The notes under the pieces: model-generated
Told to the model about the DNA's origin: nothing
The model's database searches: none
What the model saw: the letters and a program-made list of their open reading frames with translations, nothing else
NCBI GenBank assembly: GCA_013265495.1
Contig: MU057989.1
Coordinates: 1 to 64,000 of the forward strand
Direction of reading: 5' to 3'
DNA from: Vicugna vicugna
Lineage: Eukaryota
Length of the DNA: 64,000 bases
Translations under genes and position numbers: made by a program
Shown here: piece after piece, positions 26,201 to 38,392 of the stretch
How the letters are laid out: every line of letters begins with the position of its first letter
How positions within the stretch are numbered: the stretch's first letter is position 1

Positions 26201-27606
26201 GAGAGCAGTCAGGAGTTCTCAGAGGGATAGTGGGCCACCTGAGTGCCCTGGGGCTGCTCCCTGAAGGGAAAGGGCCAGGGCTGCTGCGGGGCTCCCCCTG
26301 GACCATTAGCAGGTCTTTCTACCCACCAGAGTCCAGGGCAGAAATGGTGAGGGCCCAGAGAGCCTCCAGCAAAGTCCCATGACCTGGGGACTTGGGGGAG
26401 AGCTGGAAGTGGGGGAAGGAGGGTGCCTCTTCTGCCAGCTCACCAGGCCAGGTACTCAACCACCTGGCACCTCCCACAGCCCTCCTCAGAAAGGAGGCAC
26501 CACAGCAGGATGGACTCTAAACAGCTTCCATAGTGACCATCCCCACAGGCCAGGCTCTGTGTCCAGCACTGACTCACCTCCCCTCACTCCTCCCACCCCG
26601 GGGCTCACCTCCACTGGGAGGTGGGATGAGGAAGGTGGAGGCTGGTGGCGCCATTCGGGGAGAAGTGAAAGACAGAAAGAAAAGAACAAGACGCACAAAT
26701 GTGCATGGGAATGTTCTGGAAGAACATTCTGGAAGAAACTGCACAGGGTTTCCTCCAGGAGCACCAACGGGGACCTTGTGGGTGTAATCGGCTGCAGCCC
26801 GGCCTGGGGCTCACCAGCACACCCGGCCCGCATCCAGTGCGATGTGCGGGCAGATCCCCGGGTGCAGACCCAGAGCCCGGGGTCAGCGGGCCGCCTGCCC
26901 CCAAACTCACTTTCGGAAGCAGTGCGCGGCCGAGAGCACCCAGCGGCGGTTGAGCAGGCTCCCTCCGCAGTGGTGGCTGCCCCAGACGCGCAGGCTGGCC
27001 TGCCACGGCCAGCGCCCCAGCTCCGCGTCCTTTCCACCCACTATGCGTGTCGGGATGCTCCGTTGGCCGCAAGGCCCTGGGATGGACAGACGGACACGGG
27101 GCTGAGCTGCAGAAGGCGGGTCCACCTTGCCCACCCTCAGCCACCGGGGTGCGCGAAGGGAACGGACTCCCTGGGGAACCGCGTGTCCTGGGCTCGCGCA
27201 GCAGAGGAAGACAGGGACGCCGGGGACCCGCCCCACGTGGGCCGCAGGTGCCCGCCCCTCCCCCAGGGGCCCATCAGTTACATGTGAGCAACGACGAGTT
27301 CTGGAAACCTGAGGCGGGGGAGAGAGGAAAAGATGAGGCGCCCTTCAAGCTCCGGTCCAGGTGCCCTGAACAGAGAAGCGCGCCTCCTGGAGGCCTTACC
27401 TGGAAGCAGCAGTTCCTCATCCTGCAACGCTGGGTGGGGAAAGTGGGGGTAAGAGAGAAGGTGAGCTCCCTTCGGTCTCCACGCGCCCCGTCCTCCCCCA
27501 TCACCCCTAGTTGCGCCGGCAGCCCCCGCCTGAGCTCACCCTGCCTCCCGACTTCAATCTGCACCAACAGCTGCGCCAGCAGCAGCGCCCCGACCCGCGC
27601 GTCCAT
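23287..27606 (-). CDS. PRSS21: Testisin, GPI-type trypsin-like serine protease, 314 aa
   Basis: Exons 27606-27540, 27429-27400, 27076-26911, 26187-25904, 23979-23825 and 23529-23287, all GT-AG, 945 nt open. Motifs R|IVGG, AAHC, DIAL and GDSGGP, plus a hydrophobic C-tail. Testisin-diagnostic [27 protein letters not shown] and KDACF. Confidence 0.95.
24600..24830 (-). mobile_element. MIR fragment (PRSS21 intron 4)
   Basis: 'attattaccccattttatagatgaggaagctgag...gccttgcccaaag'. Confidence 0.7.
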
Positions 27607-27951
27607 GGCCTCTTCTCTCGCCGCTTAGCGCCCCCTCTGCTTCCGCCTGCTCCGGTGCCGGGCTGGGGCGCCCCCTGGGGGAGAGGGAGCCACGGGAACC
27701 CTGGCCCTCGCCTTACCCCAGGTTGACCTGTCTGGTTCAAGGGCTGTTGGGGAACGTGGGACCTCACATGCCCCAGCTTTGAGCTTCTGCTGGGGCTGGG
27801 TCCCCTAGCTACATATCAGGAACCAGAGCACCCAAACAATCCCTGTAACGCTGGGGTCCTGGCTACCCTCTCTGCTGCCCTCTTTTCTACCCACTCCTTC
27901 CTTCAGGAAGGACCAAGGACCTGGCTCACAGACAGGACTCCCATGACAGCA
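26231..27951 (-). repeat. Inner inverted-repeat arm A (PRSS21 promoter to intron 3), 1721 bp
   Basis: Reverse complement of 36672-38392 with a constant coordinate sum of 64623 (no indels). All paired ORF translations are identical. Confidence 0.97.
26780..27720. promoter_or_regulatory. CpG island over the PRSS21 5' end
   Basis: Dense CpG and high GC across the promoter and exons 1-3. Confidence 0.75.
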
Positions 27952-36400: not shown

Positions 36401-36671
36401 GTCTGTTCACGTCTATGACTAAGAGCCACCTTGGTGACTTTGGTACCCTGCAGCATTGCCTGCCAGGAAGGGAAGCTGCCTGTAGGCTCTATGGAGTTAG
36501 GTGGGGCTTGTTCCCCAGGCAGCAGGCAGACACAGAGGCTAAAAGTCCTCCAGATGGTCAAAATCAGGCCTGCCTTTATGATGTGGGTCCTATGAAGGAT
36601 CATAACTTTTAACAGCAAGTGACACAGTGCTAGACCTCCAATCAGCACTCAGTGAGGACTTGTTAAACATT

Positions 36672-38392
36672 TGCTGTCATGGGAGTCCTGTCTGTGAGCC
36701 AGGTCCTTGGTCCTTCCTGAAGGAAGGAGTGGGTAGAAAAGAGGGCAGCAGAGAGGGTAGCCAGGACCCCAGCGTTACAGGGATTGTTTGGGTGCTCTGG
36801 TTCCTGATATGTAGCTAGGGGACCCAGCCCCAGCAGAAGCTCAAAGCTGGGGCATGTGAGGTCCCACGTTCCCCAACAGCCCTTGAACCAGACAGGTCAA
36901 CCTGGGGTAAGGCGAGGGCCAGGGTTCCCGTGGCTCCCTCTCCCCCAGGGGGCGCCCCAGCCCGGCACCGGAGCAGGCGGAAGCAGAGGGGGCGCTAAGC
37001 GGCGAGAGAAGAGGCCATGGACGCGCGGGTCGGGGCGCTGCTGCTGGCGCAGCTGTTGGTGCAGATTGAAGTCGGGAGGCAGGGTGAGCTCAGGCGGGGG
37101 CTGCCGGCGCAACTAGGGGTGATGGGGGAGGACGGGGCGCGTGGAGACCGAAGGGAGCTCACCTTCTCTCTTACCCCCACTTTCCCCACCCAGCGTTGCA
37201 GGATGAGGAACTGCTGCTTCCAGGTAAGGCCTCCAGGAGGCGCGCTTCTCTGTTCAGGGCACCTGGACCGGAGCTTGAAGGGCGCCTCATCTTTTCCTCT
37301 CTCCCCCGCCTCAGGTTTCCAGAACTCGTCGTTGCTCACATGTAACTGATGGGCCCCTGGGGGAGGGGCGGGCACCTGCGGCCCACGTGGGGCGGGTCCC
37401 CGGCGTCCCTGTCTTCCTCTGCTGCGCGAGCCCAGGACACGCGGTTCCCCAGGGAGTCCGTTCCCTTCGCGCACCCCGGTGGCTGAGGGTGGGCAAGGTG
37501 GACCCGCCTTCTGCAGCTCAGCCCCGTGTCCGTCTGTCCATCCCAGGGCCTTGCGGCCAACGGAGCATCCCGACACGCATAGTGGGTGGAAAGGACGCGG
37601 AGCTGGGGCGCTGGCCGTGGCAGGCCAGCCTGCGCGTCTGGGGCAGCCACCACTGCGGAGGGAGCCTGCTCAACCGCCGCTGGGTGCTCTCGGCCGCGCA
37701 CTGCTTCCGAAAGTGAGTTTGGGGGCAGGCGGCCCGCTGACCCCGGGCTCTGGGTCTGCACCCGGGGATCTGCCCGCACATCGCACTGGATGCGGGCCGG
37801 GTGTGCTGGTGAGCCCCAGGCCGGGCTGCAGCCGATTACACCCACAAGGTCCCCGTTGGTGCTCCTGGAGGAAACCCTGTGCAGTTTCTTCCAGAATGTT
37901 CTTCCAGAACATTCCCATGCACATTTGTGCGTCTTGTTCTTTTCTTTCTGTCTTTCACTTCTCCCCGAATGGCGCCACCAGCCTCCACCTTCCTCATCCC
38001 ACCTCCCAGTGGAGGTGAGCCCCGGGGTGGGAGGAGTGAGGGGAGGTGAGTCAGTGCTGGACACAGAGCCTGGCCTGTGGGGATGGTCACTATGGAAGCT
38101 GTTTAGAGTCCATCCTGCTGTGGTGCCTCCTTTCTGAGGAGGGCTGTGGGAGGTGCCAGGTGGTTGAGTACCTGGCCTGGTGAGCTGGCAGAAGAGGCAC
38201 CCTCCTTCCCCCACTTCCAGCTCTCCCCCAAGTCCCCAGGTCATGGGACTTTGCTGGAGGCTCTCTGGGCCCTCACCATTTCTGCCCTGGACTCTGGTGG
38301 GTAGAAAGACCTGCTAATGGTCCAGGGGGAGCCCCGCAGCAGCCCTGGCCCTTTCCCTTCAGGGAGCAGCCCCAGGGCACTCAGGTGGCCCA
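36672..38392 (+). repeat. Inner inverted-repeat arm B (PRSS41 promoter to intron 3), 1721 bp
   Basis: Reverse complement of 26231-27951. Confidence 0.97.

Follow-up and report, generated by a model that had tools for sequence, protein, structure and literature searches.

Arm-to-arm gene conversion is known from the palindromes of the human Y chromosome, which carry testis genes. Genome assemblers can, for their part, flatten or collapse near-identical repeats. Conversion at the 5′ ends of genes has also been described: according to the available text of Winter and Ponting (2005, PMC1274310), 5′ UTR blocks of the BEX, WEX and GASP genes at Xq22 were homogenised by gene conversion, giving rise to 'chimaeric' genes. 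The kind of event that we discuss here for the protease genes PRSS21 (testisin) and PRSS41 (TESSP-1) of a llama-like camelid is a known one; the gene pair is new.

Like the Y palindromes, the PRSS21/PRSS41 locus has testis-expressed genes on inverted arms that flank a unique spacer, and the arms show a near-100% identity that would be brought about by non-reciprocal copying. Unlike in the Y palindromes, only a short part of arms that measure at least 5.6 kb is homogenised (1.7 kb, and a further 0.8 kb at 95%), the arms represent two different genes with only 59–60% protein identity in exons 4–6, and the locus corresponds to the protease cluster at human 16p13.3 rather than to any part of a sex chromosome. 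With assembler flattening it shares exact copies whose edges coincide with a rise in true divergence, a consensus in which copy-specific variants are mixed, and the lack of a third copy elsewhere. As in the BEX/WEX/GASP genes, the 5′ part would have a history separate from that of the remaining gene (available text of PMC1274310). However, the block in PRSS21 and PRSS41 includes coding exons, for the signal peptide, propeptide and histidine loop, as well as the proximal promoter, and involves two genes only.

The inverted repeat and its two genes

The window, by which we mean the whole 64,000-nucleotide stretch that was analysed, contains a perfect inverted repeat. The left arm (26231–27951, minus strand) matches the reverse complement of the right arm (36672–38392, plus strand) at 1721 of 1721 bases with no mismatch, paired positions summing to 64623 throughout. 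Each arm comprises 345 bp of proximal promoter (27607–27951 on the left), coding exons 1–3, an optional 27-nt exon, introns 1 and 2 and most of intron 3, the left arm for PRSS21 and the right for PRSS41. In PRSS21, 345 bp separate the inner edge from the ATG at 27606, and the start of exon 4, at 26187, lies 44 bp beyond the outer edge. The block is sharply bounded, with an identity of 1.00 throughout, non-coding DNA included, versus 0.50–0.84 outside. At the outer edge, from 26230 downward, identity falls immediately to 0.62–0.84 per 100 bp, and diverged continuations of the arms, containing exon 4 and the first part of intron 4, occupy 25590–26230 (minus) and 38393–39036 (plus), where the two match at 0.50–0.84 per 100 bp. 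At the inner edge, from 27952 onward, ungapped identity is at chance level, weak similarity reaching about 27–40 bp further in a gapped alignment. The alignment thus bore out the initial annotation, which had described the exact repeat, its constant offset sum, its abrupt ends about 40 bp before exon 4 and about 345 bp upstream of the ATG, and the weaker similarity beyond them. The block occurs in just two places in the whole 2.03-Gb assembly, in which the next matches span about 100 bp at 72–74%, and self-BLAST of the window, both alone and together with the following 200 kb, found no further repeat of comparable quality. The core of the left arm (26900–27700; mirror 36923–37723) is CpG-island-like, with a GC content of 0.69 and a CpG observed/expected ratio of 0.68; by the criteria used (>200 bp, GC >0.5, observed/expected >0.6) it is only this core that qualifies, the whole tract having values of 0.65 and 0.46.

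PRSS21 (minus) and PRSS41 (plus) stand head to head, and their homology spans 22338–27993 and 36624–47837. They form a palindrome-like inverted pair whose arms, at least 5.6 kb long, flank a unique spacer of 8.7 kb (27952–36671) with no homology to them. In intron 4 of PRSS41 the arm homology is interrupted by an AT-rich stretch of 6.7 kb (39037–45732; GC 0.30–0.40) that has no PRSS21 counterpart and in which the two ORFs tested gave no Pfam match; it resumes at 45733. A second, older tract of high identity is located just downstream of the stop codons, at 22338–23170 (minus) for PRSS21 and at 47006–47837 (plus) for PRSS41. It measures 833 bp at 95% (0.90–1.00 per 100 bp), or 922 bp at 94.5% by self-BLAST of the window with the following 200 kb, next to exons at 62–86%, and in a search of the whole assembly its only full-length match was its partner.

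Both gene models are intact, and all introns are GT-AG. The PRSS21 coding region (23287–27606, minus) yields 314 aa without the optional exon, from exons at 27540–27606, 27400–27429, 26911–27076, 25904–26187, 23825–23979 and 23287–23529; that of PRSS41 (37017–46824, plus) yields 309 aa, likewise without it, from exons at 37017–37083, 37194–37223, 37547–37712, 38435–38718, 46088–46242 and 46597–46824. The optional 27-nt exon (27282–27308 and 37315–37341), which lies inside the block, is used by the NCBI main isoforms. Nucleotide identity between the genes is 100% in exons 1–3 and 74.7%, 64.5% and 74.1% in exons 4, 5 and 6. Exon 4 of the left gene matches 'testisin [Vicugna pacos]' at 100% and Camelus at 96% identity; the gene has the AAHC, DIALL and GDSGGP motifs, with the His, Asp and Ser of an S1 trypsin domain, and a hydrophobic C-terminal tail, and its RefSeq counterpart (P0160) contains a Trypsin domain (6.5e-60). 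GPI anchoring is stated for human PRSS21 in the available text of PMC7834812. For exon 4 of the right gene, identity is 100% with two alpaca proteins, 'testisin-like X1' and 'serine protease 41-like X3', and 99% with Camelus, the best named non-camelid matches being serine protease 41, at 67–68%. The camel members of its cluster carry the name 'serine protease 41', as NCBI names the camelid right gene, and its RefSeq counterpart (P0123) contains a Trypsin domain (1.9e-61). Outside the tract the right gene differs from the RefSeq alpaca by one residue (Q307R), and the window therefore comes from a different animal or species. The gene order is a jacalin-domain gene (ZG16B-like, 10423–12316, minus), PRSS21, PRSS41 and PRSS33 (52429–53910, plus), with Jacalin and Trypsin domains detected in the flanking genes. 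In human the order is PRSS33, PRSS41, PRSS21 (available text of PMC6774566), and the right gene lies between PRSS21 and PRSS33, as expected for PRSS41.

In a tree of exons 4–6, a PRSS21 clade of 43 rows (SH-aLRT 99), which includes the left gene, stands apart from the PRSS41-type rows. The right gene is placed outside this clade (99) and joins the camel 'serine protease 41' (100) as well as the second copy that seals and bears have (90); the tree is unrooted, so that the tie of the right gene to the PRSS41 of Euarchontoglires depends on the root. The names given to the two genes at the outset, their standing as old paralogues and the divergence of their exons 4 and 5 agree with the exon 4 matches, the camel cluster names, this tree and the nucleotide identities. 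What did not hold is the statement that one promoter serves both genes: the promoter is present in two copies, one per gene, and 9.4 kb separate the ATGs. A tree of exon 3 (55 columns) was poorly resolved and placed the RefSeq camelid PRSS41 rows towards other PRSS41. Diagnostic columns for exon 3 were dropped in favour of identity ranges, two of the four columns being usable and these pointing opposite ways; from both kinds of class comparison, rows P0126, P0014, P0020 and P0048 were left out as mis-modelled or ambiguous.

Evidence for gene conversion in camelids

In the RefSeq alpaca, PRSS21 (P0160) and PRSS41 (P0123) agree at all 33 residues of the signal peptide and propeptide and at 50 of the 55 residues of exon 3, but at 116 of 193 in exons 4–6, and three camel pairs give corresponding values of 33/33, 50–51/55 and 114/193. 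Protein identity between camelid paralogues is thus 100% in exons 1–2, 91–93% in exon 3 and 59–60% in exons 4–6. In 14 PRSS21/PRSS41 pairs from rodents, primates, tree shrew and other species that are neither camelids nor carnivores, exon 3 identity ranges from 0.25 to 0.76. Furthermore, both paralogues have the same lineage states in exon 3, with SLRV in alpaca versus SLRL in camels, and also in read-through translations of an intron, with SSF in alpaca versus SSS in camels. At the protein level, sequences inside the tract group by species and those outside it by gene. The near-identity of the 5′ exons is seen again in two alpaca annotation sets and three camel species. Gene conversion of the PRSS21/PRSS41 5′ ends is therefore supported by data independent of the window's assembly, and we read the conversion tract, from these sequence comparisons, as real, recurrent and old in camelids. 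PRSS41 has KDAE in C. ferus and C. dromedarius, whereas that of C. bactrianus shows the PRSS21 state, KDTE; this difference suggests a small conversion event of younger date. Compared with other mammals, the exon 3 body of camelid PRSS41 is closer to PRSS21 (median 0.81, best 0.91, in hippo) than to PRSS41 (median 0.72, best 0.77), and these 43 residues point to PRSS21 as the donor and PRSS41 as the recipient.

Copying is not the only process that could make two 5′ ends alike. Given that the region consists of a CpG-island-like promoter and coding exons, purifying selection might have preserved the shared promoter, signal peptide and propeptide without any transfer between the genes. We consider this extremely unlikely, for the introns are identical as well, their read-through translations agree between paralogues within a lineage and differ between lineages, the same exons match within species and differ between species, and the 14 pairs from other orders show how far exon 3 can diverge. 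Nor is it probable, to any but a very slight degree, that the similarity is artefactual as a whole, with one arm pasted in by mis-assembly or gap filling and true 5′ ends as diverged as exons 4–6. The older alpaca models are indeed broken, the 'testisin' P0001 having no exons 1–3 and P0177, P0183 and P0187 ending after exon 3, and the region is therefore hard to assemble. However, independent chromosome-level annotations of alpaca and camels, with exons 1–2 identical and exon 3 at 91–93%, contradict such an origin.

The perfect identity of the arms

It is in the last few differences that the window departs from other camelid data. Five gene-specific residues of exon 3 are kept in two alpaca annotation releases (represented by P0123 and P0160, and by P0177, P0183 and P0187) and in Camelus dromedarius, C. 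bactrianus and C. ferus. In alpaca and the three camel species, PRSS41 has K-x-S-I-Q-P and F-R-K, whereas PRSS21 has Q-R-S-I-P-T and F-E-K; at least 6 + 2 nucleotide differences are needed for these residues, at least 6 in PRSS41 exon 3 and the others for the codon change from E to R in PRSS21. Each window arm is instead a mosaic, in which exon 3 has the PRSS21 type (QRSIPT) at its start and the PRSS41 type (FRK) at its end, and no further copy with a PRSS41-type exon 3 was found in the whole assembly. A single conversion event is thus insufficient to explain the mosaic, which needs either two events in opposite directions or flattening by the assembler. The initial annotation had taken the perfect identity as a sign of very recent or ongoing gene conversion. 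Conversion of the 5′ ends agrees with the contrast between exons and with the shared lineage states described above, but the words 'very recent or ongoing' are unsupported because every other camelid protein set examined keeps the five gene-specific residues.

If the perfect identity were real, further very recent conversions in this animal or species would have erased the last differences, leaving PRSS41 with the activation-site residues of PRSS21, and PRSS21 with a PRSS41-type residue at the end of exon 3. Arms that are exact across 1721 bp with sharp edges are consistent with such conversions, and so are an assembly with one run of 38 N in 264 kb that keeps the 95% tract distinct, an animal that differs elsewhere from the RefSeq alpaca, and the recurrence of conversion in this pair, both in camelids and, as judged from protein mosaics, in bears and seals. 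However, at least two events in opposite directions would be needed, jointly leaving zero difference, and the differences that they erased survive in all other camelid sets examined (two alpaca releases and three camel species). At an assumed substitution rate of 1e-9 per site per year per lineage, moreover, zero differences in 1721 bp would confine these events to less than about 0.9 million years. We therefore regard real identity as somewhat unlikely, and flattening by the assembler as the probable source of the final 100%, more so than two fresh conversions. The evidence for flattening consists of the disagreement with other assemblies, which themselves come from other animals.

In the history that we propose, PRSS21 and PRSS41 are old paralogues, standing head to head as a palindrome-like inverted pair in this camelid, and repeated, non-reciprocal interlocus gene conversion between the arms would keep them alike from the proximal promoter to intron 3 and in the stretch after the stop codon. 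PRSS21 would be the main donor of the exon 3 body, while exons 4–6, which encode most of the mature protease, have remained diverged. Conversion would have occurred on the camelid stem and again after the llama/camel split. The step from near-identical to a letter-perfect 1721 bp is most likely not biological: an assembler has probably built one consensus from two near-identical arms and placed it twice, and the shared sequence would for that reason be a mosaic of both gene types. We favour this combination of old paralogues, recurrent arm-to-arm conversion and a last step of assembly flattening, and hold it, on balance, to be moderately probable.

Several further observations touch on the assembly. 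The 38-N run (63794–63831), which may be a gap or a masked stretch, is the only one in 264 kb, with no N run within the next 200 kb, and the assembly looks contiguous. Such contiguity fits a long-read assembly, which normally would resolve a 1.7-kb repeat, and this counts against flattening, as does the 95% 3′ tract, which the same assembly kept apart. The two alpaca annotation sets may have one animal as their source. Conversion is evidently ongoing in the family, as the KDTE state of C. bactrianus indicates, and a fully homogenised allele could exist in one animal of the llama lineage. Crossover between the arms was rejected as a source of the mosaic, for it predicts reciprocal chimaeras rather than identical arms, and the types that it would bring together in the left arm are the wrong ones. 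Searches for additional sequence data gave 51 matches to Logan-derived ORFs covering exon 3, none of which was a camelid contig ORF; beyond P0183 and P0187, two of the older alpaca models, these matches added nothing. Metagenome contigs searched for camelid host DNA with a 35-nt word from exon 3 gave no match. Among 24 sequencing runs, the shares of sampled words were 0.96–1.00 in 14 DNA-like runs and 0.09–0.27 in six RNA runs (one label guessed; some from reproductive tissue), and these shares carry no evidence on arm differences or expression.

Consequences for camelid PRSS41

If the conversion history is true, camelid PRSS41 is an evolutionary chimaera, in which a promoter, signal peptide, propeptide and histidine loop derived from PRSS21 are joined to its own substrate-binding exons. 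Annotation pipelines have already mislabelled it 'testisin-like', and it would be unsafe to infer its expression or activation by orthology from mouse or human PRSS41. The gene pair may also serve as a compact system for studying what stops conversion tracts, because converted stretches surround a few activation-site codons that have persisted for tens of millions of years. As for method, a letter-perfect inverted repeat in one assembly does not by itself show that conversion is ongoing; in the present case, the repeat is at odds with independent annotations.

A wider reading, which we put forward as speculative and rather doubtful, is that PRSS21 and PRSS41 make up an autosomal mini-palindrome that has long persisted throughout Laurasiatheria. 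Patchy conversion between its arms would repeatedly re-unify the signal peptide, the propeptide and the promoter, an effect that in carnivores would extend to half of exon 4 and exon 6, while selection would keep apart a few specificity-determining segments, among them the residues that directly precede the activation cleavage site. The last of these barriers would have fallen in the present animal, so that its PRSS41 carries the activation motif of PRSS21. Were this true, the fallen barrier would amount to a natural domain-swap experiment between two fertility-related proteases.

The spacer between the arms carries relic trypsin-like exons on its minus strand, at 32675–32953 and 30965–31066, which were found by tblastn with older alpaca and camel models (P0158 and P0180). 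The first of these, at 32675–32953, also matches the Pfam Trypsin domain (1.1e-05).

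The inverted repeat and its two genes

The initial annotation described an identical 1.72-kb inverted repeat, and direct comparison bears this out: 26231-27951 and 36672-38392 are exact reverse complements over all 1721 positions. The block is found at exactly two places in the whole 2.03-Gb assembly, these two arms, and self-comparison gave no second repeat of comparable quality, whether within the window or after extending it by the following 200 kb. The inverted repeat is genuine in the given sequence and far beyond chance. At its inner edge the ungapped match drops to chance level within two bases, gapped alignment adding about 27-40 bp of weak similarity; at the outer edge identity is 0.62-0.84 per 100 bp and homology goes on beyond it.

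Gene models built from three-frame reading and splice sites are intact for both genes, with six coding exons each and GT-AG at every intron. The left gene, PRSS21 (minus strand, ATG 27606, stop 23287), and the right gene, PRSS41 (plus strand, ATG 37017, stop 46824), stand head to head and divergent, 9.4 kb apart from ATG to ATG. The perfect block takes in 345 bp upstream of each ATG and exons 1-3 with their introns, and ends 44 bp short of exon 4, in agreement with the limits first noted (~345 bp and ~40 bp). It includes the optional 27-nt exon used by NCBI main isoforms (27282-27308 and 37315-37341), and its core at 26900-27700 is CpG-island-like (GC 0.69, CpG observed/expected 0.68). Nucleotide identity between the two genes is 100% in each of exons 1, 2 and 3, and 74.7%, 64.5% and 74.1% in exons 4, 5 and 6, so that exons 4-5 are diverged as had been claimed.

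At exon 4 the left gene agrees at 100% with 'testisin [Vicugna pacos]' and at 96% with its Camelus counterpart, and the right gene agrees at 100% with both 'testisin-like isoform X1' and 'serine protease 41-like isoform X3' of alpaca and at 99% with Camelus; 'serine protease 41' is the name of the camel members in the same 90% clusters as the right gene. In an unrooted maximum-likelihood tree of exons 4-6 (70 rows, 193 columns, quick search, SH-aLRT support only), these exons group by gene. The left gene lies within a 43-row PRSS21 clade (support 99), the right gene joins camel PRSS41 (100) and then the second seal and bear copy (90), and Euarchontoglires PRSS41 forms a third group (99). Being unrooted, this tree would allow the laurasiatherian and euarchontogliran PRSS41 groups to be one-to-one orthologues. 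The human order PRSS33, PRSS41, PRSS21 (PMC6774566), in the 16p13.3 cluster, agrees with the order in the window. Both human proteins, PRSS21 with 314 aa and PRSS41 with 318 aa, are described as GPI-anchored proteases of the testis (PMC7834812).

Evidence for gene conversion between PRSS21 and PRSS41

Evidence for conversion comes from protein comparison and is independent of this assembly. In a 72-row alignment of the two window proteins and 70 database proteins, paralogues were compared within species. RefSeq alpaca PRSS21 and PRSS41 share 33/33 residues in signal peptide and propeptide and 50/55 in exon 3, but only 116/193 in exons 4-6; the three camel pairs give 33/33, 50-51/55 and 114/193. 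Among rodents, primates, tree shrew and further species outside camelids and carnivores, 14 such pairs show an exon 3 identity of 0.25-0.76, in most of them about the level of exons 4-6. Moreover, exon 3 has SLRV in both alpaca paralogues versus SLRL in both camel paralogues, and the intron-2 read-through isoforms of both paralogues have SSF in alpaca versus SSS in camels. Camel PRSS41 itself varies, with KDTE in C. bactrianus, as in camel PRSS21, and KDAE in C. ferus and C. dromedarius. Such patterns require that sequence was copied from gene to gene since camels and llamas separated, or else repeated parallel change. Since the camelid PRSS41 exon-3 body is closer to other mammals' PRSS21 (median 0.81, best 0.91) than to their PRSS41 (median 0.72, best 0.77), PRSS21 was probably its donor.

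Other lineages were compared through protein models from other assemblies, which may themselves contain errors. Polar bear (P0019/P0120) shows 39/39 matches in exons 1-2b, with a common 3-residue deletion, 43/55 in exon 3, 21/47 and 47/47 in the 5' and 3' halves of exon 4, 26/52 in exon 5 and 78/79 in exon 6. The corresponding values are 40/42, 54/54, 22/46, 47/47, 22/40 and 77/80 in grey seal (P0014/P0115), where both copies carry a PRSS41-type exon 3, and 39/42, 34/55, 27/47, 37/47, 27/52 and 33/52 in horse (P0032/P0067). Carnivore PRSS21 and PRSS41-type copies are thus identical or nearly so at the start (exons 1-2b), at the end (exon 6) and in the 3' half of exon 4; for exon 5 and the 5' half of exon 4 the figure is about 45-50%. 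This is concerted evolution of a mosaic kind beyond the camelids. Given that the same exons differ between species, mosaic homogenisation of the pair seems to recur in Laurasiatheria, with segments and directions varying by lineage. We read the block as a genuine conversion tract, one that has recurred in this old pair of inverted proteases.

Mechanistically, a break in one arm would be mended without crossover, with the other arm of the same chromatid or of its sister as template, and the tract would end where homology drops, namely at the promoter edge and at the closely packed mismatches around the activation-site codons and exon 4. Crossing over between arms would invert the spacer. The segments that stay distinct encode the residues just before the cleavage site between R and IVGG and most of the mature protease, a pattern that would accord with selection for distinct activation and specificity.

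Arm-to-arm conversion is known from testis-gene palindromes, which are among the closest cases to PRSS21/PRSS41. The same kind of process is described for BEX/WEX/GASP, whose 5' blocks are kept alike by gene conversion so that the 5' part and the coding part have separate histories (PMC1274310). In PRSS21/PRSS41, however, the converted block takes in coding exons, namely those for signal peptide, propeptide and histidine loop. Among the matches listed in the full-text literature, whose coverage leaves out subscription journals, we found no treatment of conversion of PRSS41 or PRSS21 (testisin). This is a known process in a new gene pair.

Origin of the perfect identity

While conversion of the 5' ends, as initially interpreted, is supported, perfect identity is not reproduced in other camelid sets. 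In RefSeq alpaca (P0160, P0002, P0123) exon 3 reads [10 protein letters not shown]...HCFEK in PRSS21 versus PCGKQSIQPR...HCFRK in PRSS41, the latter type being present also in the older alpaca annotation (P0177, P0183, P0187), and camels have GQRSIPTR...CFEK versus GKRSIQPR...CFRK. Both window arms have GQRSIPTR...CFRK. Relative to all other camelid sets, then, it is the last part of exon 3 that is altered in the left gene, and the first part in the right gene. Translation of PRSS41 exon 3 in two frames by the RefSeq isoforms P0123 and P0149 implies at least six nucleotide differences from the window exon, all in the first ~40 bases, with none needed in the rest.

A single conversion event was rejected, because the recipient becomes donor-like and both copies cannot be altered in opposite senses. 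This leaves either two very recent events, with 0 differences remaining in 1721 bp, or merging of the arms during assembly. Two events would have to be younger than about 0.9 million years at 1e-9 substitutions per site per year per lineage, the rate assumed for all age estimates here. That the identity is real in this animal agrees with the contiguous look of the assembly (a single 38-N run in 264 kb), but the differences erased in the window persist in all five other camelid sets, and we regard this reading as rather doubtful. It is reasonably probable that the assembler flattened the near-identical arms into one consensus written twice, with the variant chosen independently at each bubble, and assembly is a likelier source of the 100% identity than recent biological change. 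No separate contig carrying a PRSS41-type exon 3 is present in the assembly.

The sole protein difference outside the repeat is at the end of the right gene, ...APQLL (46816-46824) versus ...APRLL in the RefSeq alpaca protein and in every camel PRSS41 examined, which implies that the window comes from a different animal or species from RefSeq alpaca.

Downstream tract and neighbouring sequence

Just past both stop codons, 22338-23170 on the PRSS21 side and 47006-47837 on the PRSS41 side are inverted and 95% identical (0.90-1.00 per 100 bp), with exons and introns beside them at 0.30-0.86; in the whole assembly each finds a full-length match only in its partner. This resembles a conversion tract of greater age, lying in the 3' UTR or flank, its ~4.3% mismatches corresponding to roughly 20 million years at the assumed rate.

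PRSS41 intron 4 contains an AT-rich 6.7-kb stretch (39037-45732, GC 0.30-0.40) without PRSS21 counterpart, probably inserted interspersed repeats; two ORFs checked in it had no Pfam match. The window's only N run (63794-63831, 38 bases), which may be either an assembly gap or masked sequence, lies beside a poly-A stretch, and the next 200 kb of the contig are N-free. Neighbouring genes are a ZG16B-like gene with a Jacalin domain (10423-12316, minus strand) and PRSS33 (52429-53910, plus strand; 88-96% to a deer 'serine protease 33' model). Between the arms, the 8.7-kb spacer carries on its minus strand the relics of trypsin-like exons at 32675-32953 (Pfam Trypsin, 1.1e-05) and 30965-31066. In P0001, P0158 and P0180, which are older 'testisin' models from alpaca and camel, these are spliced to exon 4 of PRSS21 and take the position of its true exons 1-3.
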